60,307 nucleotides of DNA, taken from a virus. Lineage: Duplodnaviria > Caudoviricetes. The notes beneath the pieces are model-generated. The model saw only the letters and a program-made list of their open reading frames with translations, was not told the origin of the DNA and did no database searches. The stretch lies in the IMG/VR virus record IMGVR_UViG_3300020373_000003, positions 1-60,307 of that record; one strand, given 5' to 3'. Position 1 is the first letter of the stretch. Each line of letters starts with the position of its first letter. Position numbers and translations under genes: made by a program. Shown here in pieces: positions 6,952-60,077 of the stretch.

Positions 6952-6964
6952 AGAAAGGTAAAAA

Positions 6965-7726
6965 ATGTTAGTACAAAACGTATCAACTTTTCCTAATGAA
7001 TTAGGAACAAATGTAAAATTTTTTAATCCATTTGGACCTAATTTATTACATTATACATTACAACCTGATATTCTAAAAAAATGTTTAGATTGTGTAAATG
7101 ATTATAGAGGTAATCGAGAAGTTATAGAAAAAATAAAATCTGAAGGCCAAATTGTCCAAGGGTCTAGGGCTATAGAAAATCAAGCTAATTCTATTACTGA
7201 CGGTGAAATGTTAACTTTAGATCACGAATTTCAAGAAAAATATTATGATAATATTTTTAAAGAAGTTATTTCGGTATCTGTTTATAATTACGGTTTACAA
7301 TCTGCTATGGCAAGTATTGACGACATAGGAATGAGAGAAGTTGAAGATGATTATTTTGCATCCATAGAGCATAATGTCGAATCAATGGAAGTTGAAATTA
7401 AAGATTGTTGGTTTGTTTGTTTAAAATCAGGAGATTTTCATATTTTACATGAACATAATCATGGTGGCGTTCTTCTCAGCGGAGCAATTTATTTAGATGT
7501 ACCTGATAACCCTTGGCCTCAAGGTAATATGAATTGGATAGTAAATGGAAATTCGGCTAGCATGTTTAATGCAAGTTGGGGGGTTCAACCAAAAGCAGGA
7601 GATGTTTTTATTTGGCCGGCTTGGATTAAACATTCAGTATATCCTTTTAAAGGAGAAGGCGAACGACTTATGGTATCATTTAATACTATACTAACTATAA
7701 AAAAGGACGGAAATGAAACTGTTTAA
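6965..7726 (+). CDS. 2OG-Fe(II) oxygenase family protein (paralog 2)
   Basis: HILHEHNH...SGAIYL...WPAWIKHSVYPF...RLMVSFN; collinear with the upstream gene. Confidence 0.8.
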   Translation: MLVQNVSTFPNELGTNVKFFNPFGPNLLHYTLQPDILKKCLDCVNDYRGNREVIEKIKSEGQIVQGSRAIENQANSITDGEMLTLDHEFQEKYYDNIFKEVISVSVYNYGLQSAMASIDDIGMREVEDDYFASIEHNVESMEVEIKDCWFVCLKSGDFHILHEHNHGGVLLSGAIYLDVPDNPWPQGNMNWIVNGNSASMFNASWGVQPKAGDVFIWPAWIKHSVYPFKGEGERLMVSFNTILTIKKDGNETV

Positions 7727-8735
7727 AAAAGTTGCGTGTTTTACAGACATACATTTTGGCTTAAGAAACAATAGTAGATTACATAATACAGATTGCGAAG
7801 AATTTGTTAAATGGTTTATTAAACAAGCCAAAAAAGCAAAATGTGAAACTTGTATATTTTTAGGTGACTGGCATCATCATAGAGCATCCATTAATGTTAG
7901 CACTTTAAATTATACAATGTCGAATTTAGAGTTTTTATCTAAAGCATTTACAAATGTATTTGTTATAATGGGCAACCATGATCTATTTTACAGAGATAAA
8001 CGTGAAATTAATAGTGTATCATTTGGTGGCTTATATGATAATATACACATCATAGATAGTATTTTTACAGAAGGTGATGTTAGTATTGTTCCGTGGTTAG
8101 TACAAGACGAATGGAAGGAAATGCCTAAGATAAAATCTAAGTATATATTTGGTCATTTTGAATTAGGCGGATTTCAAATGAATCAACTTGTAGCAATGCC
8201 AGAAAATGGAGGATTAGGACAACAACATTTTAAAAATCAAGAATATGTTTTTAGCGGTCACTTTCATCATAGGCAACAACAAAAAAATGTAATATATATA
8301 GGTAACACATTTCCCCATAATTATTCAGATACATGGACTGATGATAGAGGAATGATGACATTAGAATGGGGCAAAGAACCTCAATATACTGCATGGCCAA
8401 ATGCACCATCATTTAAAACAATTAACCTTAGTAAATTAATTGATAAACCTGAAAAATATTTAAAACCAAAAACATATATAAGAGTAACATTAGACGTAGA
8501 CATTTCATATGAAGAAGCAACTCATATTAAACAAGTGTTTACTGATGAATATGATCTACGAGAAATAGTATTATTACCAGAAAGAGAGGACGAACACGAA
8601 ATAGATTGGTCCGACGGCGAGGTTCCAAAATTTGAATCTGTAGATCAAATAGTATTAAATGAACTTTCTACTATTAAATCAACCCATATTAATAACAATA
8701 AATTGGTTGACATCTATAACAATCTGACTGTATAA
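7713..8735 (+). CDS. gp47: Recombination nuclease, Mre11/SbcD-like
   Basis: DIHFG, GDWHH, GNHD and SGHFH metallophosphoesterase motifs. Confidence 0.92.
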   Translation: MKLFKKVACFTDIHFGLRNNSRLHNTDCEEFVKWFIKQAKKAKCETCIFLGDWHHHRASINVSTLNYTMSNLEFLSKAFTNVFVIMGNHDLFYRDKREINSVSFGGLYDNIHIIDSIFTEGDVSIVPWLVQDEWKEMPKIKSKYIFGHFELGGFQMNQLVAMPENGGLGQQHFKNQEYVFSGHFHHRQQQKNVIYIGNTFPHNYSDTWTDDRGMMTLEWGKEPQYTAWPNAPSFKTINLSKLIDKPEKYLKPKTYIRVTLDVDISYEEATHIKQVFTDEYDLREIVLLPEREDEHEIDWSDGEVPKFESVDQIVLNELSTIKSTHINNNKLVDIYNNLTV

Positions 8736-10478: not shown

Positions 10479-10671
10479 TACACCATGGGTAGATAAAAAA
10501 TCTATATTAGAAATAACCCAGCAATCTAGAGGAGGAGCAGGATTGGCACCGCTAGATATGGGGTTTTTATATTTTTTTAAGAATGGTGAAACAAGGCATT
10601 GTCTAGATGATTCGGAGGCGCACGATTTTTATGCAAAAAACAAAGACAGACTTAACACAGAAAAAGAATAA
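10471..10671 (+). CDS. Hypothetical protein
   Basis: 66-aa ORF overlapping the gp46 stop, with GGAG upstream. Confidence 0.5.
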   Translation: MSNTPWVDKKSILEITQQSRGGAGLAPLDMGFLYFFKNGETRHCLDDSEAHDFYAKNKDRLNTEKE

Positions 10672-11380
10672 ATTTTTTATAGCGACACCATTTGGCAATT
10701 ATATTAAACACGAAAATGCAATTAGAGTAAAAGGCACATATACAATATTACCTAGACCAGGATTAATTAAACAACTAATTAAAACTCTTAGATATGATTT
10801 TAATAAAAAAGGTTGGAAAAACGAATTAGGACTCTGTAATCCAGGGATTAGATACGGACTTAATAAATACAGAAACAACGGCAAAGAAGTTATAAGCATT
10901 GCCGCAATACTACCAATTGATTGGGTAGACTTTGCAAAAAAAATACCTGATCATGTAAACTTAGAATTAAATTTAAGTTGTCCAAATATCGATAAAGTAG
11001 AAATAGATTATAAAGCCCTTACTAAGTTTTATAATGCATTTTGGGATAATAAACGAGAATGGTGTATAGCCAAAATATCGCCCCTATCTACAAAGGACGA
11101 AATCAAACGATTATTAGACATTGGGTTTGGTCAGATCCACTGCTCCAACACCCTCCCTATTACTGGCGGAGGATTGAGCGGAAAGGAATTGATAAGTTAT
11201 ACGATCAAACACATAGATTACATAAAGACACAGTTTCCCTCAGTGAAGATTATCGCAGGAGGAGGAATTAATCATATTGATATTGTAAATTATTATAAAA
11301 GTAAAGGTGCAGATTATTTCAGTTTAGGAACTGTATGTTTTACACCTTGGAAATTACTAAAAATACTTAATGCCAAGTAA
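10631..11380 (+). CDS. pyrD: Dihydroorotate dehydrogenase-like FMN enzyme
   Basis: NELGLCNPG, ELNLSCPN (catalytic Cys), AKISP, SNT, GGLSG and IIAGGGI motifs of class 1 DHODH. Start codon uncertain (10607 or 10631). Confidence 0.75.
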   Translation: MQKTKTDLTQKKNKFFIATPFGNYIKHENAIRVKGTYTILPRPGLIKQLIKTLRYDFNKKGWKNELGLCNPGIRYGLNKYRNNGKEVISIAAILPIDWVDFAKKIPDHVNLELNLSCPNIDKVEIDYKALTKFYNAFWDNKREWCIAKISPLSTKDEIKRLLDIGFGQIHCSNTLPITGGGLSGKELISYTIKHIDYIKTQFPSVKIIAGGGINHIDIVNYYKSKGADYFSLGTVCFTPWKLLKILNAK

Positions 11381-24231: not shown

Positions 24232-27200
24232 ATGGCTGATTTTATTTTAGGACGATTAAAGTTTAAATGGAAAGGTGACTGGGTTACCTCCACACAATAT
24301 ATTATAGATGACATTGTTAAGTATGGAGGTAATACATATGTATGTATTATTAATCATACTGCAGATGCTTTATTTTATACAGACTTAGATAGTAATGCAT
24401 ACTGGTCGTTACATACTGAAAGTTTTGCATACGATTCAAGTAATACAGCATGGCAGGCAACTACAGCATATAAAAATAATGATGTAGTGCGTTGGGGAGC
24501 AAATTTATATCTTTGTAATACTCATCACACTTCAGGCAACGATTGGGCAACCAATTCTGCTAAATTTACTTTATTTGTTCCTGGTTTAGAATTTGAAGAT
24601 TCATATAATAATACCACACAATATCAATTAGGGGATGTTGTTACATATGGTGGTTATACTTATACAGCAAAACAAGATACTGTAGGTAATTTACCTACAC
24701 ATACTACATATTGGGATGTTTTAACAACAGGATTTAAAGTTAGAGGCGAATATAATGCAGGTACAGCATATAATCCAGGTAATGTTGTAACTCGAAATGG
24801 TTATGTTTATGTAGCAATAGTAGATACAACAGGTAACTCACCAACAATACAAGACACAGATCCTCAATCACAAACATATAACGAAACAATTACAAATGCA
24901 ACATATTGGGAATTAATAAACACTGGTTTTCAATTTAAAGGTGATTGGAATGGTGCTTCAACTTATTACTTAGGTGATGTAGCAAAAGAAGGTAATAGTT
25001 CTTATATTTGTGTAGATGAACATACAGGAGACGGAAGTTCATCTTCTCCAACAAAACCACCTTCTGCATATTGGGATACCCTTGCCGCTGGTGATACAAC
25101 TATTGTTATGAACACCCCAGGTGACATAATGATAAGAACTTCTACTAACCAAAAATTAAATGTAGGAGCAAAAGGTTGGAAATTACGAGCAGATGAAGGA
25201 CAAAACTTTCCTATACATTGGGATCCAGATGATGAATCATACACATGGTATGTTGATTATCATAAAGGTTCAGACGAAGAAAATCTTACTTATAGTCCAG
25301 GCGTAGTTTCAACAGGATCTATGTCAAGTGGTGAACAAACATTATGTACAAGAGACTTAGGTTATGTATTAGATGCCGCAAAGTATGATATGGCAGTAGG
25401 CACAAATTATATGCAACATATAGTTGGTGTTAGAATGAATTATGGTGTGAATGTAACAACTGCTGATAGGATAAGAGTATTAGGTGCAATTGAACATGCA
25501 AAATTAGCAACTGTTGCTATTAATAGTGTTTCGTCAAAAAGTGTAATATTAGCAGAAGTAACACAATCATTTGATGAAGTAACAGATATTATAAACAATG
25601 GTCTTCCTGCGGCAGATCCAATATCTTTTCCAGATTTTGGTGCTTCTTCTAATAAAATAAATGCAGTAGCACAAATGCAAGCAAATAAAAACTTTATAGC
25701 CGCAGAAGTTAATGCATGGATAGAAGATTATATTGGTGCAATGACACAAGCAGAACAAGATTTATGTACAAGAGATATAGAATATGTAATTAATGCCGCA
25801 AAATATGATATGGCTATGGCCACAAATTATATGTCGGTTATTACAGGTATTAGATTTAATCATGCATTATATGCTGTTTCTTCAGATAAAGTACGAGTTC
25901 AAGAGGCCGTAGATCATTCAGAAGCATCCATACAAGCATTAACTAATGTAACTGGTGGATCAGAAGCCGCAATAGTTGCCGCTTATGCAGAAATTAAAGA
26001 TATTATGGATAATGGTATTGGTAATGCCGATACACCAACTTTTCCAGATTTTAATACTGGTAGATCAGATTGGACAGATAGAAAAAATGGTGGAGCTCAA
26101 TTACAAGCAAATAAAGATTTTATAGCTGAGGATGTGAATAAATGGGTATCGGTTAATCATACATCTCACTTTAATACATATGATGAAGCAAAATGTACAA
26201 GAGACACAGGGTATCTTTTAGATGCAATAACATATGATTTAATGTATGGTGGCACAAGTGCAACAACTATAATGGCTAAAGCATTTTTTGATGGTGGAAT
26301 ATCACAATTAACAACTCCAACTGAAAGAAATGTAACTGTTCAAGCATATCAACATTTAGCATTAATTGCTGATGATGTTGTTCAAGAAACAGCGGTAACC
26401 CCTCAAACAGGAAATAATGAAGTACAAGATACAAGTGGTACAGCCGCAACACAAGCAGAAGGTACAATAGTTCAAAATTTAATGCAGATTATAGAAGATG
26501 CAATTTATGCTAATAGTGTTTCTGGTGTACCAGCGGCTATATATCCAGATGTTGCTACTTCAACTCACATAACTCCATTTACAGATATTGGAACTGATCA
26601 AACAACAATAATAGCGGCGGCGGTAGGCTCTGTTGCTAGTAGTGCTGGTTATGTTCATAATGCATCATTATGTACAAGAGACTCTAAATATTTTATAGAT
26701 GCATTAAGTTACGATTTATTATACGGAGGTGATTTTGGAACGCATGTCTGTGCATTTTCATTTTTTGATGGAGGAGCATCACAAATACCTGCAAATCATA
26801 GAGAAACTACAGGATTAGCATATAATTATATGGCAGATGTTCTCAAATATTGTATAGAAGAAGATACAACTTGGAATCCAGAACAATCTGTAATAACCCA
26901 AAATACTTCAGGACAAGCAGGAACAAGTGCAGAAAGCACAATAGTTGATACAAATTTACAAGTTATAGAAACTGCGGTAACCACTAATACTATACCGGCT
27001 ACTTCTATAACTTATCCTGCAATAACTAATGCATTAGTAGATAATACAACTGCATTTAATGATATAACATCAAGCCAAGGAACTATTATATCTAATGCAG
27101 TAGCGGCAGTAGCGGCAGGACAAATAACAGGTTCAGGAGTTGCTGATTATGCTGGTGGTACAACATATACAGCAGGTACTGTATGTAGATGGGCCCCACC

Positions 27201-30123
27201 TGCATGGGCAAGTGCAGGTACATATGTGTTAGGACAAATAGTATCACATACTGATGTTACCCATCCGAATGAAGATAAATCAAGATGGTATAAATGTATA
27301 GATACAACTAATGCAGGCGTTGGTCCTCCATCCGTAAGTGGTAATGTATCTGCTCCATGGAAATTAATTGCTCCATCAGATCCTATTACACAAACAACAG
27401 CAGTAGATCCAAATAATTTGCAAGTATTTTATGGTAAAGATAGATTATATGGTAGATCAGATCATACTACAACTGCTAATTTTGGTGGTGATGAAACAAG
27501 GTATCAAGTATTCATAGCCATAAAAGATAGATCATCAGTAGAGCCAATGAATTCAGTTACTGGTGAAGTAAATGAAGGTTGGCGATTAGTAATGAACGGA
27601 TTAAAAGTAGATGTATATGGACAAGTAACCGGTGTTATTACTTGGGGTAAAAATACTAGTGCGGCATTTAAAACAATACGATATGCCCTACAAAGATCAA
27701 GATCAGGTGACCAAATTATGTGTGCACCAGGGGTATATAAAGAATTTTGCCCAATGGTAATCCCGGCAGGAGTCGGTCTACAAGGGAAAGAAATGCGTAC
27801 AACTTTTGTTGAACCTAATATGGAAGACGATGGTGGTAATGGAGTCGGAGTATCTATGTTAGGAGCAGGGTATCCTAACAATGAAGTTGCAATGTTTTAT
27901 GTAAATGATGCAGTAACAGTTAGAGGATTTACATTTAGAGGTATGGGTGGTACCTCTATAGGTGTAGGTACTCCTCATGAAGAGCCTGTAATTAAAGGTG
28001 TATGTTTTAGATTAGATCCAAATGGTGCAATTAATCTTAAATCTCCATTTATTCAAAATGCTGTTTCGATTTGTGATGGAGGCGGTGGAATATATTGTGA
28101 TGGTCATGATGCACCTTATGGTCGATATCAAAGCATGTGTACAAACGACTTTACACAGGTAAATTCAGATGGATTTGGTATATTTTGTACAAACAAAGGG
28201 CGAGTTGAAGCAGTATCGGTATTTACATATTATAATCATGTAGGATTTACTACAACTCATGGTGGTGTTTTACGTGCCGCAAACTGTAACAATTCATATG
28301 GAGAATACGGTGCAGTTTCTGAAGGTAACTTTGCAAATGAAGTAGACTTACCTCAAAAAACTGCTTCTATTGATAACAAAACAGGTGAAGCAGTACCATA
28401 TAGAGTTATGGTTGATGAAGTAAACGGAGAAGTTATAAGAGTAGAATGGAAACATGCAGGTGAAGATTATACAACTGCTAATCTAACATTTTCTGCCTCA
28501 GGTGATAATGATGCAGGAACTCCAGCGGCAGGTGGTCCGGCTGCTTTTTCATCTACTTTTGTTAACAATGGAATAACAAGAATAACATCATCAAATAATG
28601 TAGTGAATCTTAATAGATATTTTGGTAATGCCCAAGCAGGAACAAACCCAGGTTCCGGAGATGCTACTCTCCAATTAACAGCAACAGCAAACACAACACC
28701 AGCCGTAAACTTTATTGGAATGACTATTAATATTATAGGTGGTGCGGCCGCAGGGCAATTTGGAACTATTCAATCTTATGATTTTGCTACAAAAACAGCA
28801 ACATTAAATGGTGTATGGCAATCAATGAATGCTAGTGCAACTGGAACACCAGACTTTACTTCACAATATGAAGTTGTTCCGACTGTAACTTTAACATCAA
28901 CACCTGCGGCATCGGTTGATGCTATAATACATTGCCAAGTTTCAGGGCTAGCCGATGTTGAACAAATGCTTATTATACATCCAGGTTCAGGATATGATGT
29001 AACTGCACCTCCTACAATGACTATAGTCGATCCTGGAGCAGATCAAAATTCATTATCTGGATATAACCCAAGTTTTGAAATTGCCAATGGAGTGCCTGTT
29101 TGGACACGAACAGATGCTGGAGGCGGATACCCAACAGGTATGCAACAAGGACAACTTACACCTGGAACAACTATAGCAACTGTAGCAGGAGATGGTTTTG
29201 CAAATGTAAAACAAATAGGTGGTTACTTATATGTTAGAAATTTATCTCGAGAACCTAAAGATGGTTCAAATATGGAAATTGCAGGCGATTTAACTTTTTA
29301 TACTGTAGTTAATGTTTTGGGATATGCTAATACTGGCGGCGCAACCGGAACAGCATTAATACAAATATCACCTCAAATGCTAACTCAAGATTCGCCTGTT
29401 CATGGAACATTTGTTCAATTTAGAGAAGAATATTCTAGTTGTAGAATGACAGGACATGACTTTTTAGATATTGGCACAGGCGACTTTGCTACTTCTAATT
29501 ATCCAGGAATACCAACCCAAGATGCAGATCCTACACATGAGACACAAGAACATTGTGGAGGAAGAGTATTTTTTACATCAACTGACCAAGATGGTAACTA
29601 TAGTGTTGGTGGATTATTTTCTGTACAACAATCAACTGGACGAGCTACTCTTAATGCTGAAGACTTTTCATTAGCAGGATTAAATGAATTAAAACTTGGA
29701 GCATTACAATTTTCTGGATATGGTGCAACTATTGATGAATTTTCATCTGATGGAACATTAAGTGGTAATTCAGATAGTGCATTAGTAACAGAAAAAGCAA
29801 TTCGAACATACATAACTAACCAATTGGGCGGTGGTGATAACCAATTAGAGGTAAATACTGCTACAGTTGGTTCAGTATTTATATCAGGTCAAGAAATTTC
29901 AACAGTGGCCGCATCGGGAATGGACTTACAACTAACTTCAGATAGTGGTAAGGTTGTGTTTGTAGGCGAACCGCAATCTAATGCGACAATAACAACCGAT
30001 ACAAGTTTAATTACTAAAACATATTTTGAAGATAATTTCTTAACTCAAAATTTAGTTTCAAATATTATGGAAACATTAGATAATACTAGAGTAGCAGGAA
30101 CAGGATCACCGGATACACCCTAA
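24232..30123 (+). CDS. Giant multidomain virion/fibre protein (carbohydrate-binding-like repeats, CxRD helical repeats, beta-helix domain)
   Basis: 1963 aa. N-terminal W..Y..GDVV.YGG..Y repeats, four CTRD..Y..DA..YD repeats, AFKTIRYAL...PGVYKE pectin-lyase-like start, C-terminal GHDFLDIGTG and IDEFSSDGTL motifs. Confidence 0.7.
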   Translation: MADFILGRLKFKWKGDWVTSTQYIIDDIVKYGGNTYVCIINHTADALFYTDLDSNAYWSLHTESFAYDSSNTAWQATTAYKNNDVVRWGANLYLCNTHHTSGNDWATNSAKFTLFVPGLEFEDSYNNTTQYQLGDVVTYGGYTYTAKQDTVGNLPTHTTYWDVLTTGFKVRGEYNAGTAYNPGNVVTRNGYVYVAIVDTTGNSPTIQDTDPQSQTYNETITNATYWELINTGFQFKGDWNGASTYYLGDVAKEGNSSYICVDEHTGDGSSSSPTKPPSAYWDTLAAGDTTIVMNTPGDIMIRTSTNQKLNVGAKGWKLRADEGQNFPIHWDPDDESYTWYVDYHKGSDEENLTYSPGVVSTGSMSSGEQTLCTRDLGYVLDAAKYDMAVGTNYMQHIVGVRMNYGVNVTTADRIRVLGAIEHAKLATVAINSVSSKSVILAEVTQSFDEVTDIINNGLPAADPISFPDFGASSNKINAVAQMQANKNFIAAEVNAWIEDYIGAMTQAEQDLCTRDIEYVINAAKYDMAMATNYMSVITGIRFNHALYAVSSDKVRVQEAVDHSEASIQALTNVTGGSEAAIVAAYAEIKDIMDNGIGNADTPTFPDFNTGRSDWTDRKNGGAQLQANKDFIAEDVNKWVSVNHTSHFNTYDEAKCTRDTGYLLDAITYDLMYGGTSATTIMAKAFFDGGISQLTTPTERNVTVQAYQHLALIADDVVQETAVTPQTGNNEVQDTSGTAATQAEGTIVQNLMQIIEDAIYANSVSGVPAAIYPDVATSTHITPFTDIGTDQTTIIAAAVGSVASSAGYVHNASLCTRDSKYFIDALSYDLLYGGDFGTHVCAFSFFDGGASQIPANHRETTGLAYNYMADVLKYCIEEDTTWNPEQSVITQNTSGQAGTSAESTIVDTNLQVIETAVTTNTIPATSITYPAITNALVDNTTAFNDITSSQGTIISNAVAAVAAGQITGSGVADYAGGTTYTAGTVCRWAPPAWASAGTYVLGQIVSHTDVTHPNEDKSRWYKCIDTTNAGVGPPSVSGNVSAPWKLIAPSDPITQTTAVDPNNLQVFYGKDRLYGRSDHTTTANFGGDETRYQVFIAIKDRSSVEPMNSVTGEVNEGWRLVMNGLKVDVYGQVTGVITWGKNTSAAFKTIRYALQRSRSGDQIMCAPGVYKEFCPMVIPAGVGLQGKEMRTTFVEPNMEDDGGNGVGVSMLGAGYPNNEVAMFYVNDAVTVRGFTFRGMGGTSIGVGTPHEEPVIKGVCFRLDPNGAINLKSPFIQNAVSICDGGGGIYCDGHDAPYGRYQSMCTNDFTQVNSDGFGIFCTNKGRVEAVSVFTYYNHVGFTTTHGGVLRAANCNNSYGEYGAVSEGNFANEVDLPQKTASIDNKTGEAVPYRVMVDEVNGEVIRVEWKHAGEDYTTANLTFSASGDNDAGTPAAGGPAAFSSTFVNNGITRITSSNNVVNLNRYFGNAQAGTNPGSGDATLQLTATANTTPAVNFIGMTINIIGGAAAGQFGTIQSYDFATKTATLNGVWQSMNASATGTPDFTSQYEVVPTVTLTSTPAASVDAIIHCQVSGLADVEQMLIIHPGSGYDVTAPPTMTIVDPGADQNSLSGYNPSFEIANGVPVWTRTDAGGGYPTGMQQGQLTPGTTIATVAGDGFANVKQIGGYLYVRNLSREPKDGSNMEIAGDLTFYTVVNVLGYANTGGATGTALIQISPQMLTQDSPVHGTFVQFREEYSSCRMTGHDFLDIGTGDFATSNYPGIPTQDADPTHETQEHCGGRVFFTSTDQDGNYSVGGLFSVQQSTGRATLNAEDFSLAGLNELKLGALQFSGYGATIDEFSSDGTLSGNSDSALVTEKAIRTYITNQLGGGDNQLEVNTATVGSVFISGQEISTVAASGMDLQLTSDSGKVVFVGEPQSNATITTDTSLITKTYFEDNFLTQNLVSNIMETLDNTRVAGTGSPDTP

Positions 30124-37010: not shown

Positions 37011-37625
37011 ATGGCAAAAATAGATTTTGATACAAAAAACATTGGAAAACAAATTCATGATGACGGTGAATTTGATTTACCTGCACACTTACATAGCGGA
37101 GAAGGACAAGACTTAACTTTGCCATCTAGATACGGCATTAATAAATCAGAAGATCCTGTTATTGTGTTTGATAGATTTCCGGGGTGGACAGACGACGCGG
37201 CAAAGACAGAATTAGATAGAATTTGGACAGAAGATGTTTGGCCAAGCAGAGTTTCTCAATTTTTAGCCGCTACGGAACAAATAAAAGCAGAGGCTAACGC
37301 TAGATTTAGAGAAAGTGGATGGAAATTAGAAAAAGCATTAGATACCGCTGAAGGTGATTGGACACATGCCGATGTAACGGCCGCCTTAGCAGATAGAGCA
37401 GAAACGAGAACTAAATCAGGCGAGCACGAACAAAAAATTAAAGACGCATTAGTAGCAAGAAAACATCCAGATGATTGGCCAGCAATTGACGGTTGGACTT
37501 GTCCGTTAGCAGACAAGTATAAACCTGTTCAAGATGGATCAGATACAGCGGCAGGAATTGCGGCTACCAAAGCGGCAAGAGTAAAAGCAGACTTTGATGT
37601 TGATGATCCAGGTTCTGGACTTTAA
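37011..37625 (+). CDS. Possible tail-fibre assembly chaperone
   Basis: IKAEANARF..SGWK...R...R helical pattern typical of fibre chaperones; directly after the paralog array. Confidence 0.45.
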   Translation: MAKIDFDTKNIGKQIHDDGEFDLPAHLHSGEGQDLTLPSRYGINKSEDPVIVFDRFPGWTDDAAKTELDRIWTEDVWPSRVSQFLAATEQIKAEANARFRESGWKLEKALDTAEGDWTHADVTAALADRAETRTKSGEHEQKIKDALVARKHPDDWPAIDGWTCPLADKYKPVQDGSDTAAGIAATKAARVKADFDVDDPGSGL

Positions 37626-39334
37626 AACATAGTTGTAATACTTTCAATATATTGGCGGGACTCTTTTATTTCAGAGTCCTGCAATTCCTCTACATGCTCT
37701 AACCATTTATATTGATCCTTTAAATCATAAGCATATTCACAAAAAACATCATTTAACCATTTTCGATGGGTTAATCTACCTAAAATAGTTCTAAGGGCCT
37801 GAAGGTATTCTTTTGGAGTTCTATCTTCTAATATAGCTCGTTCGTCTGCTAATGCTCCGGATTTATATGCTTCTTCTTGTCTTGGTGTTATCCAAACTTT
37901 AGATAAGTCCCAGCCATCTATTTCAGAGCCCAATTCATTACCTGCCGATAATAAACTAAATGCAGGTCTACCAAAAAATAAATGTTGTTGTTTATAATTC
38001 ATAACCTCTGAACCATGTTCTATATATTGTTTTCGTTTTTCTGCCCAATCATTCCAATATTTTGATTTATTATTTTTATTAAATGCATAATGAGCACCTA
38101 TATAATTAACTGTACAATCAAATGTATCGTGAACATATTTGTTATACATATCTATTTTTTCTTGATCCCACATGAAAAAATAGTTTACATCTAGTTGAGA
38201 TGTATCCCATGCACCGATAGATACCATTTGAACATCTTGTGGTAATTTATTTTGTTTTACTAATGATAAAAATGATATTAAATTATTATGCATAAAAAAT
38301 ATAGAAGTACTTTCTAATGGTTCTACAAATCCCGATGATAAGCCACAGGTTATCCAATTAGTACCTGCTTGCTTTTCATAGCATTCTGTGTTAAACTTAA
38401 TTAGTTGACAATCTTCATCTTTAACTCTATCACCATCATAACTATTTTTAAATTCTTGTAGTGCATCTTCTTCTGAGATATAATCTGTACTGAATACATA
38501 ACCTGTACCTATTCGATCACGTAAACCAATTTGCCATCGCCATCCTGCTTCCATTGTTTGGCATTCAACACAACTTAAATAAGGTAATTCGTTATCTTTA
38601 TCGACATAATCTATTCGGGTTGCCCATGCTCTATTATTTGGATTTTCGTCTTTCCAAGATTTAGGAGTTAACCCTATAGCATTAGGTACTAATCGCTTAA
38701 AACCACTACAATCAATAAAAAAGTCTGCTTCTATTCGTTGACCATCTTCAGTTACAAGATAATCAATTTTATCTCCATCTATAATTTTAACTTCTTTAAT
38801 CTTTTTATCTATTACTTTGGCACCTAGTTTCTTACCTTGTTTTATTAATGCTTCCCCTAATAATCCTGCATCAATATTATAAGCATATTCTCGCCACATT
38901 TTAGGTAACGGTGTATCCCAATGTTCTTGTTTTAAGAATGGAGATTTACCTGCTAATGCTAATTTTAACCCACACCAACTTTCCCAATATTCTTTAATAG
39001 GTCTATTAAAACTTACCATATCATGATATTCCATTGCAAAAAGCCCAATTGGTGTAAAATACGAATGATTATCACGTAACCAATCTTTACAATGAACTGC
39101 AAATTTAATAGCACCTCGAGCATCACCTAAACATACCTGTTCCGGATCCATCCCGCACATTTCTAAAAATATATTAATATTACCTACGGTTGCTTCACCT
39201 ACACCTACTATAGGTATTTCTTTAGAAGCAATCATTTCTATATCACAAATGTGACCTAATTTTTTTTGTAAAAATGCCAGAGCACTAGCACCTGCGGTCC
39301 CCCCGCCTATAATAACAATTTTTTTCTTTTCCAT
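37622..39334 (-). CDS. Tryptophan halogenase (PrnA-like) flavin-dependent enzyme
   Basis: GGGTAG, VGVGEAT, GAIKF (catalytic Lys position), FIDCSGF, GWRWQI and GFVEPLEST motifs. Confidence 0.88.
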   Translation of the reverse strand: MEKKKIVIIGGGTAGASALAFLQKKLGHICDIEMIASKEIPIVGVGEATVGNINIFLEMCGMDPEQVCLGDARGAIKFAVHCKDWLRDNHSYFTPIGLFAMEYHDMVSFNRPIKEYWESWCGLKLALAGKSPFLKQEHWDTPLPKMWREYAYNIDAGLLGEALIKQGKKLGAKVIDKKIKEVKIIDGDKIDYLVTEDGQRIEADFFIDCSGFKRLVPNAIGLTPKSWKDENPNNRAWATRIDYVDKDNELPYLSCVECQTMEAGWRWQIGLRDRIGTGYVFSTDYISEEDALQEFKNSYDGDRVKDEDCQLIKFNTECYEKQAGTNWITCGLSSGFVEPLESTSIFFMHNNLISFLSLVKQNKLPQDVQMVSIGAWDTSQLDVNYFFMWDQEKIDMYNKYVHDTFDCTVNYIGAHYAFNKNNKSKYWNDWAEKRKQYIEHGSEVMNYKQQHLFFGRPAFSLLSAGNELGSEIDGWDLSKVWITPRQEEAYKSGALADERAILEDRTPKEYLQALRTILGRLTHRKWLNDVFCEYAYDLKDQYKWLEHVEELQDSEIKESRQYIESITTMF

Positions 39335-54651: not shown

Positions 54652-55866
54652 TTAATTTGTTGCTAGTTTTCCTCTTACTGTTTGTTCGCCCTTCCATATT
54701 GCAGAAGTTTTAGAAAGTGAATATGCTGGCGTACTAAATTCAGCCGAATCTACACCTTCTATTTCTTGCTCAAGAGAAAGTCGAATACCTACTGTATACT
54801 TTAATCCTACCCAAACAACAAAACACGACACAAAAACAAATGCACCAATAATAGATACACCTGTTAATTGGGTAGCAAAAGATACATCATCTTTAAATAT
54901 TCCTACTGCTAAAGTACCCCAAACACCTGCAACTAGGTGAACTGATAGTGCTCCAACTGGGTCATCGATTTTGAATTTATCAAACATTGGAACGGCAACT
55001 AATACTAATAATCCGCCTATCATGCCGATTGCCATTGCTAATTCCATTGTAGGATAATCAGGTCCTGCTGTAATGCTTACAAGTCCTGCTAACGCACCGT
55101 TAAGTACCATAGTTAAATCTACTCGTTTATAGATAAGTTGTGTTGCAATTAATGCTGTTAATGCACCAGCACAGGCGGCAATGTTTGTATTTGCAATAAT
55201 TTGTGCTACCGCATTTACATCTGCTATTGTGCCCATTGCTAACTGACTTCCGCCATTAAATCCAAACCAACCTAACCATAATATAAATGTACCCAATGTT
55301 GCTAATGGTAAATTTGCTGGAGGTATTAAATTTGGTGAACCATTTTCATTATAACGACCATGTCTTGCACCTAGTAAAATTGCACCTGCTAATGCACACC
55401 ATCCACCTACGGAGTGTACAATAGTTGAGCCAGCGAAATCATTAAAACCCATTTCAGATAGCCATCCGCCGCCCCAGGTCCAATTACCTTGTAAAGGATA
55501 AATGATTGCTGAAAGTACTGCTACCATTCCCATAAAGGGCCAAAACTTAATACGTTCTGCAAGTGTTCCAGATACTATACTTGCCGCGGTTGCTACAAAC
55601 ACAACCTGAAAAAAGAAATCACTCATACCAGAATGATCTCCATCTGTTATGTTACCATACATAATTTGATAGCCAACTATATAAAACATAATACATGCCA
55701 AAGCATATAATGTTATATTTTTTGTTAAAATTGCTGTAGTATTTTTTGACCTTACTAATCCCGATTCTAGCATTGCAAAACCTGCCGCCATCCACATGAC
55801 GAGGCATCCGCTAAAAACTAATAAAAAGGTGTTGAAAATATAAGCAACGTCTGTGAAATTTTCCAT
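54652..55866 (-). CDS. amt: Ammonium transporter (Amt/Mep family)
   Basis: Multi-pass membrane protein with GFAMLESG, SGTLAER, DFAGSTIVHSVGG, WFGFNGGS, NGALAGLV and DDPVGALSVH motifs; both pore histidines present. Confidence 0.95.
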   Translation of the reverse strand: MENFTDVAYIFNTFLLVFSGCLVMWMAAGFAMLESGLVRSKNTTAILTKNITLYALACIMFYIVGYQIMYGNITDGDHSGMSDFFFQVVFVATAASIVSGTLAERIKFWPFMGMVAVLSAIIYPLQGNWTWGGGWLSEMGFNDFAGSTIVHSVGGWCALAGAILLGARHGRYNENGSPNLIPPANLPLATLGTFILWLGWFGFNGGSQLAMGTIADVNAVAQIIANTNIAACAGALTALIATQLIYKRVDLTMVLNGALAGLVSITAGPDYPTMELAMAIGMIGGLLVLVAVPMFDKFKIDDPVGALSVHLVAGVWGTLAVGIFKDDVSFATQLTGVSIIGAFVFVSCFVVWVGLKYTVGIRLSLEQEIEGVDSAEFSTPAYSLSKTSAIWKGEQTVRGKLATN

Positions 55867-56057: not shown

Positions 56058-56339
56058 ATGTTTCTTACAGATCATCTACAAAATGCGGCAAAAGCCGCCA
56101 AACGAAAACCAGGATGGGGTTACTATTTTTTTCATGCCTGGGTTGCACTTAAATGTGGAACCATATACTACTACATAGCATTCTTCTCTCAAGTACACGC
56201 AATTTTCCCATTTGTTCACGCAGATTTTGGGCTCGCAGAAATGATTGTAGCCCGAACCAATGTAATTCGTAAAAGTATTCCTAACTGGGAAGGCTGGAAG
56301 GAATTAGATAATTGGGACGATGAAAAATATGCCTCTTGA
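56058..56339 (+). CDS. Small hypothetical protein with conserved-looking His pattern
   Basis: HL...Y..H...HAIFPF pattern; GGGG SD upstream. Confidence 0.6.
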   Translation: MFLTDHLQNAAKAAKRKPGWGYYFFHAWVALKCGTIYYYIAFFSQVHAIFPFVHADFGLAEMIVARTNVIRKSIPNWEGWKELDNWDDEKYAS

Positions 56340-56386
56340 TAATTTTTTAGAACGATTAGATAAAGAGCGAATAACAAGGGCCCATT

Positions 56387-56806
56387 ATGGACATTAGAGG
56401 ATTACATCATTATGCATGGAAATGTGCTAATGTTAACGAGACTAAAAAGTTTTATAGTGGTATTTTAAATTTACCACATGTACATACTATAAAAAAAGAT
56501 TATGTTCCTAGTACAGGAGAATATGCTCCGTATGAACATATATTTTTTAAAATGGACGAAGGAAGCCATATCGCTTTTTTTGATATGGGGGATGGAAAAG
56601 GAACAACTACTGATTGTGATAATTGGATAGTTCATTTTGCATTCCGTGTCGATACAAAAGAAGATGTAGATAAATGGTATGAAAAATTAAAAGATTATAA
56701 TGTAGATGTTATAGGTCCTACTAATCATGATGATTGGATTTATAGCATTTACTTTTTTGATCCAAATGGTTTAAGATTAGAAATCACAACGGAGCTGAAA
56801 AAATGA
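56387..56806 (+). CDS. VOC/glyoxalase family protein
   Basis: LHHYA, HFAF and SIYFFDPNGLRLE motifs. Confidence 0.9.
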   Translation: MDIRGLHHYAWKCANVNETKKFYSGILNLPHVHTIKKDYVPSTGEYAPYEHIFFKMDEGSHIAFFDMGDGKGTTTDCDNWIVHFAFRVDTKEDVDKWYEKLKDYNVDVIGPTNHDDWIYSIYFFDPNGLRLEITTELKK

Positions 56807-57852
56807 GACTTGCTATTATCGGTGCAGGACGAATAGGTCTTGCTATAAATGATTTATTAGAAGATGATTTTGATATCAAATTGTGCGATTCTAGGGTTGA
56901 GGCAGAAACTTATGGAGTTAACTTACCAATAGTTGATTTTATTGATGCTTCTGATATAAAGATGTTAGGTTCGTTTATAGATTACTCTGATGTTGTTATT
57001 TCAGCAGTTAATTATAAATTTAATAGAGATATATTTCAACTTGCATTAAAAAAAGGAAAACATTATATTGATTTAACAGAAGATGTTGAAACAACAAATT
57101 GGATTAGAGAAAATTCAAAAGATGCTAGTGTATCAATTATTCCTCAATGTGGATTGGCTCCTGGAGCAATTAATATTATAGGAGCTCATTTAGCAAGGCA
57201 ATTTGAAAAACCTATATCACTTAAACTTAGAGTGGGTGCTTTACCTTTGTATCCTACAAATAATATGTCGTATTATTTAAGTTGGAATACTGCTGGATTA
57301 TTAAATGAATATGTTAATATGTGTGACGCTATTGTTAATAGAGGAAAAGCAAAAGTTAAACCACTTGAAGGCTTAGAAAAAATAATAATAAATGGTATCG
57401 AATACGAAGCATTTAACACATCAGGAGGAGTTGGGACATTAACTGATACGTATTTGCTAAAAATAGATGAATTAGATTATAAAACAATTAGATATCCAGG
57501 GCATGTAGATTATTTGCGTTTTATGTTTGAGGATTTAGGACTTAAAAATAATATGAAATTAGCAAATGAAATTTTTAATCAAAATGTACCTACAACAACA
57601 GATGATGTGGTGATATTTTTTGCAAAAGCAACTGGGTATATTAATGATAGTATAACAGAAAAAAATTGGGTATGCAAAATATACGGAAAAAATAACATGA
57701 CAGCAATTGAACGAGCAACAGCAAGCGGAGTTGCAGAAGTTTTATGTATGTTAAAAGATAATAAATTATCTTCCGGTTTTATAAAGCAAGAGGACTTACC
57801 ATTTGATAATTTCATTAATGGTAAGTTTGGAGAAATATATGGAACCACATGA
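56803..57852 (+). CDS. Saccharopine dehydrogenase / L-lysine 6-dehydrogenase family
   Basis: GAGRIG, YIDLTED, PQCGLAPG, RVGALP, EAFNTSGG and YKTIRYPGH motifs. Confidence 0.88.
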   Translation: MRLAIIGAGRIGLAINDLLEDDFDIKLCDSRVEAETYGVNLPIVDFIDASDIKMLGSFIDYSDVVISAVNYKFNRDIFQLALKKGKHYIDLTEDVETTNWIRENSKDASVSIIPQCGLAPGAINIIGAHLARQFEKPISLKLRVGALPLYPTNNMSYYLSWNTAGLLNEYVNMCDAIVNRGKAKVKPLEGLEKIIINGIEYEAFNTSGGVGTLTDTYLLKIDELDYKTIRYPGHVDYLRFMFEDLGLKNNMKLANEIFNQNVPTTTDDVVIFFAKATGYINDSITEKNWVCKIYGKNNMTAIERATASGVAEVLCMLKDNKLSSGFIKQEDLPFDNFINGKFGEIYGTT

Positions 57853-58657
57853 ACCATGGCTTATCGAAAGCGAAACACTTAGAGGACATCCAAAGGTATT
57901 ACAATTGATACAAGGATCATGGATGACAATGACACTTCCCCTTACACAATTTTGTGATGGTAGTGCATATCTTAGTCACATGGAACGAATACGAGGTGCA
58001 AGAGGCGAAACATTAGATGAATCTGCATATACTATACCATTAATGTATCAAGCAGTAAGTGACAAATTTCTACCTTGGTGTGCTAATATTCCTGCGTTTC
58101 CTTATGAATATAAAATTGACTTTGAAGCCGAAATTGGTGCAATAGTAGATACTGTTCCAATGGGAACAAGTGTTGAAGATGCAGGAAAACGAATTAAATA
58201 TATTACCATTATTAATGATATTAGTCTTCGTACTTTTTGTGCAAAAGAAGTGCAAACTGGATTTGGTTTTTTACAAGGAAAACCGCATAGTGCATTAGGA
58301 AAATGGAGCATACCAGTTATAGCATTAGAAGATGAGATTTGGCATGATAATAAATTTCATGCTACTATGATTGTTGAAGTTAACGGCGAACAAATAGGTA
58401 AAATTAATACATCAAAAGAAATGCATTTTGATTTTGCTCAATTAATAGCTCATGCCGCAAAAACTAGAGAATTAAGTAAAGGCACATTAATCGGAAGCGG
58501 GACTGTAAGCTCAAGCGATATTAACGACGGGTTTGGTTGTTTTATGGAACGAAATATAGTTACTGATAGTAAAGAATACTTAAAATCGGGAGACAAAGTA
58601 AAAATGTATATAGAAGAATTTCCAAGACATCTTTTGATAGAACAAGGAGTAGTATAA
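57839..58657 (+). CDS. Fumarylacetoacetate hydrolase family protein
   Basis: DGSAYLSH, PLMYQ, IDFEAE, NDISLR, GFGFLQGK and IGSGTVS motifs. Likely start ATG 57839. Confidence 0.85.
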   Translation: MEPHEPWLIESETLRGHPKVLQLIQGSWMTMTLPLTQFCDGSAYLSHMERIRGARGETLDESAYTIPLMYQAVSDKFLPWCANIPAFPYEYKIDFEAEIGAIVDTVPMGTSVEDAGKRIKYITIINDISLRTFCAKEVQTGFGFLQGKPHSALGKWSIPVIALEDEIWHDNKFHATMIVEVNGEQIGKINTSKEMHFDFAQLIAHAAKTRELSKGTLIGSGTVSSSDINDGFGCFMERNIVTDSKEYLKSGDKVKMYIEEFPRHLLIEQGVV

Positions 58658-58962
58658 TGAACTGGATTGGTATAATATTTCTCATTAATACAGTATGGAT
58701 TTCATTACCACCAACATTTGATTCAAAGGGTCGATTAACAGAACCACCAGGTGTAACATTTGGACTTAATGATGAATATTTTGAAGATGAAGAAGAATGT
58801 TGGGAATATTTTGATAAACATCCATCCTTTGAACTTTTAGATGTATATAGTCGTAATCATTATGATATTGAATCTATAATGAAACGATATGCAATAAAAC
58901 ATGTTGGGACTGCTTATGTTACGTGCAAACCTCACCTAAAATGGCATAAAGATGATAAATAG
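58657..58962 (+). CDS. Hypothetical protein with hydrophobic N-terminus
   Basis: TAATG overlap with the FAH gene; GGAG SD; 101 aa. Confidence 0.55.
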   Translation: MNWIGIIFLINTVWISLPPTFDSKGRLTEPPGVTFGLNDEYFEDEEECWEYFDKHPSFELLDVYSRNHYDIESIMKRYAIKHVGTAYVTCKPHLKWHKDDK

Positions 58963-58978: not shown

Positions 58979-59070
58979 TGGCTCTGGGGGTAGGAATCGA
59001 ACCTACACGCCCCTCTGCAAAGGGACAATACGCAAACAACGTACCACGTCTACCGTTTCGTCACCCCAGA
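58979..59070 (-). tRNA. tRNA with GTT (Asn) anticodon, long variable arm and encoded CCA
   Basis: TCTGGGG TG ACG AAACGGTAGA CGT G GTACG TTGTTTG CGTAT T GTCCCTT TGCA GAGGGGC GT GTAGG TTCGATT CCTAC CCCCAGA G CCA; all stems pair. Confidence 0.88.
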
Positions 59071-59202
59071 GTCCGTTTCTTTTATAAGATGTTCCTCTTG
59101 ATGCTCTGCAAGTTCATCGAGGTCTGTAAATGTTTCGTCGCATTCAAAGCAACTAGCAAATCCATATTTTTTATAAAAGTTTTTATCATAATCATATTTC
59201 AA
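59050..59202 (-). CDS. 50-aa C2H2 zinc-finger microprotein (below the ORF-track cutoff)
   Basis: TTG start overlapping the upstream TGA (TTGA). MKYDYDKNFYKKYGFASCFECDETFTDLDELAEHQEEHLIKETDSGVTKR matches C-x2-C-x3-F-x5-L-x2-H-x3-H. Confidence 0.7.
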   Translation of the reverse strand: MKYDYDKNFYKKYGFASCFECDETFTDLDELAEHQEEHLIKETDSGVTKR

Positions 59203-60077
59203 AGTAATTCCGCTTTTTTCATACCTGCAATCAAACGTGTTATTCCTATTCCTCCTCCATAACGAGGTTTAAAATCATAAGATAAAAATTCTTCAAGTTC
59301 TGCTTCTACTCTTTCTTTACCAAAGAGATCATACAATAAACTGGCATACCCACCATCTGATATTGTATGGAATTGATGTTTCATTTCTTCTACATCACTA
59401 GATCGTTCAGCACTACCTATTGTTTCCATGCCACCTATGATGACATCGCATTTGTTAGCCTGTCGGTCTTTTCCTGTACTTGTCATTCCATCCATTTTCA
59501 TGTTCCAAAATGGACTTGTTGATTCAGGAAAATGAGTTAAGAAAAATACGTCACCGTATTCCGCATACATTCTACCTTCGTGGAAATCTGTTAATTCATT
59601 ATTTTCGGCCGCATAATGTGCAACCATACTCATATAATTTCCACCCGGGAAATCTAATCCTTCGTATGGTGCTCTACCGTGATCAGTTTTAAAGCCTAAA
59701 TGTGTTAATAAATCACTTTCCATTTTAAGTAAGTTTGGAAACTCACCTGGTGCCTCAAATTCGAACATTGGAAAAATAAGTTCGTGTCTACCTTCTGTGG
59801 GATTTTGTTCTTGTCTATAACTTGTACTAACACAATAACAACCTGGTAAATCAGGTTTTGTTAGTAATTCATATTCAAGCCACATTTGACCTGTTTGAGG
59901 TAGTGGCCATATCTTGCCGTTGTAATTGTAAGTCGCAACTGTAGTTGGATCCTCACAAGCGGCTAATATGCTTAATCTGTTTTGGGTATGTACTTCTTGA
60001 AAATTTAGATTATCGAAAAAGGAACGAAGACGCTTAACCACTGTTGAAAATTCCGTCGGGTCAATTAATTGTGTCAT
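59199..60077 (-). CDS. Class II aaRS (Asn/Asp) catalytic-core-only protein, asparagine synthetase AS-AR-like
   Basis: Motif 1 LRSFF...EV.T, LPQTGQMWLE, motif 2 YRQE...RH...F.MFEFE, ETIGSAER, motif 3 GGGIGITRL; no N-terminal OB-fold. Confidence 0.85.
   Translation of the reverse strand: MTQLIDPTEFSTVVKRLRSFFDNLNFQEVHTQNRLSILAACEDPTTVATYNYNGKIWPLPQTGQMWLEYELLTKPDLPGCYCVSTSYRQEQNPTEGRHELIFPMFEFEAPGEFPNLLKMESDLLTHLGFKTDHGRAPYEGLDFPGGNYMSMVAHYAAENNELTDFHEGRMYAEYGDVFFLTHFPESTSPFWNMKMDGMTSTGKDRQANKCDVIIGGMETIGSAERSSDVEEMKHQFHTISDGGYASLLYDLFGKERVEAELEEFLSYDFKPRYGGGIGITRLIAGMKKAELL

Follow-up and report, generated by a model that had tools for sequence, protein, structure and literature searches.

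The 60,307-base record IMGVR_UViG_3300020373_000003 of a marine phage, analyzed at its full length and referred to hereafter as the window, carries at its right end a unit of three overlapping minus-strand elements: a gene for the catalytic core of a class IIb aminoacyl-tRNA synthetase resembling asparaginyl-tRNA synthetase (AsnRS), a small open reading frame (ORF) for a C2H2 zinc finger, and a dedicated tRNA with the anticodon GUU. The enzyme and the tRNA recur side by side in numerous marine phages, and the unit may be a private asparagine-charging enzyme/tRNA pair, a reading that is favored here tentatively. The arrangement of the unit is beyond chance, as is evident from the covariation of the tRNA cloverleaf, the recurrence of the enzyme-tRNA association, and the conservation of the finger. 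The three elements are as follows.

59199..60077, minus strand: class IIb aminoacyl-tRNA-synthetase core, AsnRS-like, 292 amino acids (Pfam PF00152, AlphaFold2 model, structural alignment).
59050..59202, minus strand: C2H2 zinc-finger microprotein ORF, 50 amino acids, TTG start (motif pattern, hidden Markov model (HMM), ratio of nonsynonymous to synonymous differences (pN/pS)).
58979..59070, minus strand: dedicated tRNA, anticodon GUU, 92 nucleotides (ARAGORN, Rfam, family covariance model R1).

The overlaps described in a preliminary description of this stretch are present. Briefly, the TTG start of the finger ORF and the TGA stop of the enzyme ORF share the four bases TTGA, and the TAG stop of the finger ORF is formed by nucleotides 19–21 of the tRNA, within the D-loop GGTAG. 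A scan for sigma-70 promoters and terminators gave no match on the minus strand close to the unit. RNA-library contigs from relatives of approximately 91% similarity span both the tRNA/finger and the finger/enzyme junctions (these contigs carry no strand information, their shares are at most 0.25, and stretches that they leave uncovered carry no meaning), which is a weak hint that the enzyme, the finger, and the tRNA are co-transcribed.

Linkage of enzyme and tRNA was surveyed with the family covariance model in the window and 85 phage loci, i.e., 86 sources. In 70 of them, including the cultured cyanophages P-SSM2, P-SSM5, and P-SSM7, the dedicated tRNA lies directly downstream of the enzyme gene on the same strand, and the pairing is therefore not a matter of chance; the gap between the two is 4–50 nucleotides in most loci. 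Among the 16 tRNA-negative sources, the DNA stops 94 and 207 nucleotides past the gene in two (L034 and L042), two are the huge phages L004 and L005, and 12 are loci with room for a tRNA (L047, L050, L051, L054, L060, L061, L063, L064, L069, L072, L076, and L079). A phylogeny of 151 distinct family proteins was obtained with FastTree (drawn with midpoint rooting, with Shimodaira–Hasegawa-like supports only and with long branches for L004 and L005); two clades of marine phages consist almost entirely of tRNA-linked genes (28 of 31 and 34 of 37 rows), and the tRNA label changes 7 times on the tree, compared with 47.9 times in shuffles. A co-evolution test of the tRNA pair 2-71 against enzyme columns comprised 5 independent pairs only and had no power. 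It had been suggested in the preliminary description that homologs of the enzyme should be linked both to long-arm tRNAs of this kind and to the finger ORF: the first association is borne out by the 70 co-oriented tRNAs in two clades, whereas the second is not, as the finger was detected in only 15 of the 86 sources.

The enzyme family is abundant. At least 8,000 proteins were scored in the protein search, at least 596 matches were confirmed in IMG/VR, nine were found in a collection of cultured and curated phages, and clustering at 50% yielded at least 163 clusters at E 1e-30 or better among the matches listed. In P-SSM2, P-SSM5, and P-SSM7, the enzyme is annotated as “tRNA ligase,” and ARAGORN predicts a tRNA-Asn(GTT) of 87–88 nucleotides that starts 10–18 nucleotides past the enzyme gene. 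The neighborhoods of P-SSM2 and P-SSM5 differ from that of P-SSM7, which argues that the unit moves as a cassette. In the RefSeq record of P-SSM2 (L001, NC_006883.2), the tRNA-Asn PSSM2_199 is placed inside the coding sequence PSSM2_205 (164094–164179 of the record); ARAGORN puts it right after the “tRNA ligase” gene (4813–4900 of the locus), in agreement with the locus-tag order, and the annotation seems to be off by roughly 2 kb.

ARAGORN identifies the window tRNA as Asn(GTT); its D stem has 3 bp and its variable arm 7 bp, the discriminator is G, and CCA is encoded. In a local search of 501 nucleotides, the Rfam tRNA model scored 41.4 bits against a gathering threshold of 29 (E 1.8e-7); the gathering scan of the whole window returned no match and missed the tRNA, which we take to be a loss in the speed filter caused by the long variable arm. 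The family covariance model R1 scored the window tRNA at 88.3 bits. Over 29 homologs, 18 of the 20 cloverleaf pairs display compensatory changes, and all 29 have U1-A72. Features were counted in 53 distinct sequences from the 70 sources, 52 of which are complete copies. U1-A72 and G73 occur in 52/52 complete tRNAs, the pairs 2-71 to 7-66 covary, and CCA is encoded in 49/52; in the anticodon, G34-U35 is found in 53/53 and U36 in 52/53. The length ranges from 77 to 111 nucleotides because the variable region can expand or disappear.

The covarying cloverleaf, the GG of the D-loop, the GTTCRA of the T-loop, and the 3′ CCA are those of a tRNA. With respect to canonical tRNA-Asn, the GUU anticodon, G73, and U1-A72 are retained; the canonical combination of a class I body, a 4-bp D stem, a variable loop of 4–5 nucleotides, U33, and a purine at position 37 was not found, and the anticodon loop of the window tRNA is UUGUUUG, with U37. 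The D-arm (GUGRYGRAA..GGUARAC) and the variable arm resemble those of the phage's own tRNA-Leu(UAA). Furthermore, the family model gives 63–65 bits for phage tRNA-Leu and at most 42 bits for other complete tRNAs in the phage loci, and its top matches in the two huge phages are again tRNA-Leu. The acceptor end and the anticodon agree with the canonical tRNA-Asn of the huge phages and of the bacteria of the Candidate Phyla Radiation (CPR) that bear the enzyme family. The earlier proposal of a chimeric tRNA is supported by these alignments with phage tRNA-Leu and canonical tRNA-Asn: at the level of sequence, the molecule is a true chimera, with a Leu-type body and an Asn-type acceptor end and anticodon.

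The 292-residue enzyme matches Pfam tRNA-synt_2 (PF00152) with E 2.7e-17 and 63.2 bits against a cut-off of 25. The match covers profile positions 26–294 of 308, and the ORF begins 11 residues ahead of it; the enzyme thus consists of the catalytic core only, with no room for an N-terminal domain. The N-terminal OB-fold domain, with which AsnRS binds the anticodon and reads G34-U35-U36, is absent, and the span of the Pfam match and the structural alignment described below confirm the AsnRS-type core without an anticodon-binding domain that had been expected from the preliminary description. The class II fold, motifs, and ATP-binding arginines of class IIb tRNA-synt_2 proteins are present. The enzyme scored 19.9 bits against a cut-off of 414 for the NCBIfam equivalog of AsnRS (NF003037 / TIGR00457), and it fell far short of the cut-off of every NCBIfam synthetase equivalog, the top one being the non-discriminating AspRS (ND-AspRS; 32.6 bits against 353). 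Among PHROGs, it matches an unnamed family only, and a protein atlas search returned its own family alone. The enzyme thus belongs to the class IIb core superfamily but, in view of the absent OB-fold domain and the low equivalog score, is not a canonical AsnRS.

An AlphaFold2 model built from 31 homologs (predicted local distance difference test (pLDDT) 87.7, predicted template-modeling score (pTM) 0.88) was compared with known structures by Foldseek and VIA-align. The AsnRS structures overall gave Z 27.6–26.5 with 20–24% identity, including human AsnRS (Z 27.6, 24% identity) and Pyrococcus horikoshii AsnRS (Z 26.7, 24%); the corresponding values were Z 26.4 and 19% for archaeal AspRS, Z 23.7 and 17% for the archaeal-type asparagine synthetase AS-AR, Z 23.6 and 18% for LysRS, and Z 23.2 and 18% for GenX; in all of these proteins, the model covers the catalytic domain alone. 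Model residues 1–290 map to AsnRS residues 122–417 (or 236–531), i.e., the catalytic domain only, and the model maps to residues 9–274 of AS-AR (3REX). The family profile matches Brugia AsnRS at E 2e-10 compared with E 3e-3 for AS-AR, the latter over residues 62–160 only. Motifs 2 (SYRQE..GRHELIFPMFEFE) and 3 (GGGIGxTR) are unvarying across the 31 homologs, as are the motif 2 and 3 arginines R88, R97-H98, and R281. In HMM alignments, the invariant QTGQMWLE of the enzyme aligns on QSSQLYLE of AsnRS, where Leishmania AspRS has QLYKQ, and the invariant Glu of LAACEDP aligns on the flipping-loop Glu of AsnRS (VEGG; Brugia, Entamoeba, and human AsnRS). Both marks of an Asn-type amino-acid pocket, the QxxQLYLE motif and the flipping-loop Glu, are thereby found; in human AsnRS, the latter touches the asparagine moiety of asparaginyl adenylate (Asn-AMP), according to a passage in a published study (PMC10831071). 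By predicted fold and pocket, the enzyme appears to be an AsnRS-type core that has lost its anticodon reader and not to be closely related to AS-AR.

Two unrelated peptide modules, singly or fused, can lie between the enzyme and the tRNA, and neither occurs elsewhere in the loci. One is the finger (FYKKYGFxSCFECDxxFxxLxxLxxHxxxHLI), found by HMM in the 15 sources mentioned above; the other, module A (IPIYKNGxGIHxLIxELQRQA), lies in the enzyme-tRNA spacer of 24 loci (L018–L025, L027, L030, L033, L042, L043, L046, L073, and others), is sometimes duplicated, and gave no match in a Pfam search. Both modules are present in nine loci. The window finger conforms to the pattern CX2CX3FX5LX2HX3H (CFECDETFTDLDELAEHQEEH), a form of the classical C2H2 pattern CX2-4CX3FX5LX2HX3-5H, and its Cys and His are unvarying in nine homologs; Pfam zf-C2H2 scores it at 21.9 bits, under the gathering threshold of 25.2, and L031 and L007 give 20.0–20.4 bits. 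Of 36 pairwise comparisons of the finger core, 35 gave a pN/pS below 1 (window vs. L031: pS 0.84, pN 0.185), and by this pattern of substitution the finger is a real gene under purifying selection. The window finger has lost module A, and its TTG start is coupled to the enzyme stop. Because so few sources have it, the finger is a lineage-specific accessory and not a core part. The idea that it serves as a general tRNA-binding adaptor fails on this count, on the presence of an unrelated module in 24 loci, and on the short distance (mostly 4–50 nucleotides) at which the tRNA follows the enzyme. The predicted complex of the enzyme, Zn, and the finger scored 0.00 against a mark of 0.32; with the finger's own fold uncertain, this score carries no weight either way as to binding.

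If the unit is a private charging pair, the three elements would form a mobile phage cassette, and the enzyme and its own tRNA would be produced from a single transcript. The tRNA body would have been recruited from a phage tRNA-Leu. We infer that the enzyme docks on the acceptor end (U1-A72, G73, and CCA), because it has no anticodon-binding domain and because the acceptor end alone is strictly tRNA-Asn-like. Asparagine would be activated as Asn-AMP and then esterified to the dedicated tRNA, in which GUU would have been retained so that AAY codons receive Asn. Such a supply of Asn-tRNA would be independent of host AsnRS or of the Asp-tRNA/GatCAB route, and may benefit an AT-rich genome rich in AAU, or a phage in a host whose tRNA-Asn is limiting or attacked. 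The G+C content of the window is 35%, and Asn accounts for 6.24% of its 18,308 codons (AAT 932 vs. AAC 211). The C2H2 microprotein and the “IPIYKNG” module would be lineage-specific accessories translated from the same message.

The enzyme family extends beyond phages, and its cellular members bear on this reading. A scan of species-representative genomes yielded 414 relatives, and locus counts were taken from the best 80, which are mostly from CPR/Patescibacteria at 54–62% identity, one of them on a complete Saccharibacteria chromosome of 716 kb. AsnRS and GatB were sought in five CPR genomes carrying the family, with a cut-off of 342.6 bits for the asnS model, and no protein exceeded this cut-off in any of the five. 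G001, G002, and G004 have no AsnRS (cross-matches of 88–120 bits only) and have GatB; G003 has one asnS candidate of 244 bits together with GatB; G005 has three candidates of 244–273 bits and no GatB. The tRNA-Asn genes are canonical in all five. Since G001, G002, and G004 have no AsnRS, free Asn could not enter translation there unless the enzyme charges tRNA, and the presence of the enzyme in such genomes favors a tRNA-directed role. A split AsnRS was considered and rejected: a stand-alone OB gene (PF01336) was sought in the five CPR genomes and no shared small protein was found, the PF01336 matches lying inside full-length synthetases or replication/repair proteins. The dedicated tRNA is present in five of the 80 genome loci (L096, L097, L122, L132, and L145), the bins of which are metagenome-assembled genomes (MAGs) of Methylophilaceae, Chloroflexota, Legionellales, Flavobacteriaceae, and Bacteroidetes; these five loci are probably marine MAG contigs of phage DNA. 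Two further loci, L155 and L166, are labeled archaeal, yet are placed in a phage clade.

Several observations weigh against a private charging pair. The special tRNA is lacking in 75 of the 80 genome loci; considering the CPR genomes together with the two huge phages and the 12 viral loci with room, the tRNA is not intrinsic to the function of the enzyme. Position 37 is U in 41 of 53 tRNAs (G in 9 and A in 3), and position 33 is U in 43 and otherwise C (7), A (2), or G (1); U37 and non-U33 are poor features for a decoding tRNA and suit a non-ribosomal role better. The tRNA of L056 (3868–3966) has GUC, the Asp anticodon, in the loop CUGUCGA with a divergent D-arm, and the enzyme of this locus is nearly identical to those of neighbors having GUU tRNAs. 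Furthermore, the identity elements by which ordinary AsnRS recognizes its tRNA are likewise G34-U35-U36 and G73, which would allow a host enzyme to charge the dedicated tRNA. Like the enzyme, AS-AR consists of the core only, and its structure still matches strongly (Z 23.7). Finally, in L008 and L010 the tRNA is immediately followed by a co-oriented gene for an ammonium transporter (Amt; 78% and 99% identical), which fits ammonia-dependent Asn synthesis. The window has such a gene as well.

54652..55866, minus strand: Amt gene, candidate ancestral neighbor only (Pfam Ammonium_transp, E 2.5e-95).

It lies 3.1 kb downstream of the tRNA, four plus-strand genes (56058–58962) lie between the two, and Amt is possibly an ancestral neighbor of the unit.

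These last points lead to a serious, though less probable, alternative, already named in the preliminary description as the simpler one, in which the enzyme is a functional analogue of AS-AR or AsnA that produces free Asn out of Asp, ammonium, and ATP without any contact with tRNA. The tRNA(GUU) would then be an ordinary, oddly built phage tRNA-Asn, charged by host AsnRS or by ND-AspRS and GatCAB, and its link to the enzyme would arise only since both raise the capacity for Asn decoding. The core-only length of approximately 290 residues, similar to the 294 of AS-AR, the frequent occurrence of the family in CPR bacteria and certain large viruses that have no dedicated tRNA, the retention of GUU and G73 for host AsnRS, and the position of Amt are in accordance with this account, as is U1-A72, a GatCAB determinant according to a passage in a review (PMC2330236). 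However, true AsnRS is nearer to the enzyme than AS-AR in both structure and profile, and the Amt link is confined to two close relatives among the 85 phage loci. Genomes with AsnA use AsnRS and not GatCAB, as a passage of the same review states (PMC2330236), whereas G001, G002, and G004 have the enzyme and no AsnRS. The rebuilding of a Leu body with U37 and the tight coupling of enzyme and tRNA (4–230 nucleotides, overlapping ORFs, and two deep phage clades) would also be left unexplained. If this account were true, the enzyme would represent a new viral nitrogen-metabolism gene, in which Asn synthesis is coupled to ammonium uptake.

Another alternative, unlikely in our estimation, is that the tRNA is not a decoder: the enzyme would load it with Asp or Asn for off-ribosome chemistry, and GUU(U) would be a recognition mark for a protein. 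The chemistry could be an ATP- and ammonia-dependent amidation of tRNA-bound Asp, independent of GatCAB, or a donation of the aminoacyl group to another acceptor. A loop that is read by a protein is suggested by U37 (41/53) and non-U33 (10/53) along with invariant G34-U35; the invariant U1-A72 is a GatCAB mark (from the same passage of PMC2330236), and one member (L056) has the Asp anticodon GUC. Flavin enzymes acting on uracil-type rings are also associated with the family. In 21 of the 80 genome loci, the enzyme gene follows a gene for tRNA dihydrouridine synthase (Dus) on the same strand (L099, L102–L104, L108, L110, L111, L113–L115, L118, L125, L129, L142, L144, L149, L151, L156, L160, L162, and L100), and a frequent CPR gene order is class II synthetase, FtsQ, Dus, enzyme core, and DnaX. 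Genes resembling dihydroorotate dehydrogenase (DHO_dh) adjoin the enzyme in eight loci (L101, L105, L106, L128, L147, L157, L145, and L097), and the longer forms of the enzyme are fusions to a full DHO_dh domain (eight PF01180-PF00152 clusters, P0121–P0127 and P0129) or to a GIY-YIG endonuclease, none of them with an OB domain. The window also encodes a protein of the former family.

10607..11380, plus strand: DHO_dh-like ORF (dihydroorotate-dehydrogenase family), possible distant partner only (Pfam PF01180, E 1.6e-10).

Homologs of this ORF adjoin the enzyme-tRNA unit in L145 (48% identity) and L097 (41%); in the window itself, it is 48 kb away from the unit. A search of the phage collection for co-occurrence of a DHO_dh-like gene with the enzyme returned a single match, LR756511, itself without the enzyme. 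In this reading, the tRNA would be a viral aminoacyl carrier for tRNA-bound Asp/Asn chemistry with flavin partners of Dus or DHO_dh type in other lineages, and in the most attractive version of this improbable scheme a single enzyme would make Asn-tRNA with ammonia, needing neither AsnRS nor GatCAB; the CPR homologs would then be a third, unrecognized way to Asn-tRNA in bacteria without AsnRS. By contrast, the remainder of the tRNA is canonical for translation (a 7+5 bp acceptor/T helix, the D-loop GG, GTTCRA, and CCA), the pocket is Asn-type rather than Asp-type, and no acceptor enzyme of the Fem, MprF, CDPS, or L/F-transferase type was present among the flanks examined. A dihydroorotate-like substrate without a free amino group, prompted by the DHO_dh fusions and by I101 at the “EF” Glu position, was also considered; it was set aside because the flipping-loop Glu, which contacts the amino-acid moiety, is invariant. 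As a separate observation on the CPR loci, 11 of them (L100, L102, L111, L113, L118, L135, L142, L151, L156, L160, and L162) have a co-oriented tRNA-Gln(UUG) 0.15–3.5 kb downstream of the enzyme gene.

Very unlikely is a counter-defense role, in which the tRNA would be a nuclease-resistant stand-in for a host tRNA-Asn lost to cleavage or depletion in the infected cell. Charging would proceed as in the private pair and the selective reason alone would differ; the altered loop and the foreign body would shield the tRNA from the nuclease and equally hide it from the host synthetase, for which reason the phage would carry an anticodon-blind synthetase of its own. Phages are known whose tRNAs resist anticodon nucleases owing to a changed loop, the loop is here altered precisely around the anticodon (33 and 37) with GUU kept, and other tRNAs of the phages (Leu-UAA and Cys-GCA in L006 and L008) show the ordinary loop with A37. 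Against this, no tRNA-Asn-specific nuclease is known for the hosts concerned, the window has no pointer to such a conflict, and its capsid protein is nearest to PA5oct/Phosso-type jumbo phages.

The private charging pair may be compared with known systems. The enzyme resembles AsnRS in its best structure and profile match, in class II motifs 2 and 3, in the QxxQxxLE motif, and in the flipping-loop Glu; it differs in the absence of the OB-fold domain, in a core identity of 20–24%, in the score of 19.9 bits against 414, and in its partnership with a non-canonical tRNA. AS-AR (PDB 3P8T/3REX) and AsnA are likewise core-only class IIb proteins of approximately 290 residues, and the length of the phage enzyme falls within 290–330 residues; however, AS-AR is further from the enzyme than AsnRS (17% identity; profile E 3e-3 over approximately 100 residues), and the phage enzyme family is joined to a tRNA and also occurs in genomes without AsnRS. 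To our knowledge, AS-AR is not gene-linked to a tRNA. EpmA/GenX (PoxA) and GluQRS (YadB) are truncated synthetase paralogs with adenylate chemistry and a dedicated acceptor; GenX acts on EF-P and GluQRS on queuosine in tRNA-Asp, whereas the phage enzyme has a full tRNA, CCA included, as its linked acceptor and an Asn-type rather than a Lys- or Glu-type pocket. Dedicated pairs with unusual tRNAs include PylRS-tRNAPyl (with split PylSc/PylSn), ProRSx-tRNAProX, and the Ser-type chimeric “allo-tRNAs”; in these, the synthetase gene adjoins its own tRNA and the enzyme ignores the anticodon, sometimes with a separate small protein that binds the tRNA. The outcome there is the recoding of stop or sense codons, whereas the phage pair keeps the cognate Asn anticodon on a Leu-type body, is viral, and has small proteins that are not universal.

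Nature offers few synthetase/tRNA pairs that are separate from the cellular complement, and such pairs constitute raw material for genetic-code engineering. If private charging is true, the phage pair would provide an AsnRS able to work from the acceptor end alone and a route for rebuilding a Leu-body tRNA into an Asn acceptor. The occurrence of the enzyme in CPR bacteria without AsnRS raises the question of how Asn-tRNA is made or used there. In the part of a published gene table concerned, P-SSM2 and P-SSM7 have the entry “tRNA ligase,” T4-GC 194 (PMC3037559); beyond this table row, full-text searches of the literature, supplements aside, yielded no account of the pair, of its chimeric tRNA, or of the CPR relatives.

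The remaining gene content of the window includes T4-type portal, prohead protease, major capsid, and baseplate genes in addition to several metabolic genes. The capsid protein is nearest to those of jumbo myoviruses, namely Sinorhizobium phage Phosso (74%), a Vibrio phage (69%), and PA5oct-type phages (66%), and Kyanoviridae cyanophages are not its nearest relatives. Unusual auxiliary genes are abundant at 5232–8735, 37622–39334, and 56387–58657; they encode two 2-oxoglutarate (2OG)-Fe(II) oxygenases, a flavoenzyme of the tryptophan-halogenase family, a glyoxalase-fold protein, a saccharopine-dehydrogenase-like protein, and a hydrolase of the fumarylacetoacetase family. Furthermore, an ORF of 1,963 amino acids is located at 24232–30123, among the structural genes; it contains CBM_5_12 (chitin-binding) repeats and a stretch with weak resemblance to phycobilisome proteins.

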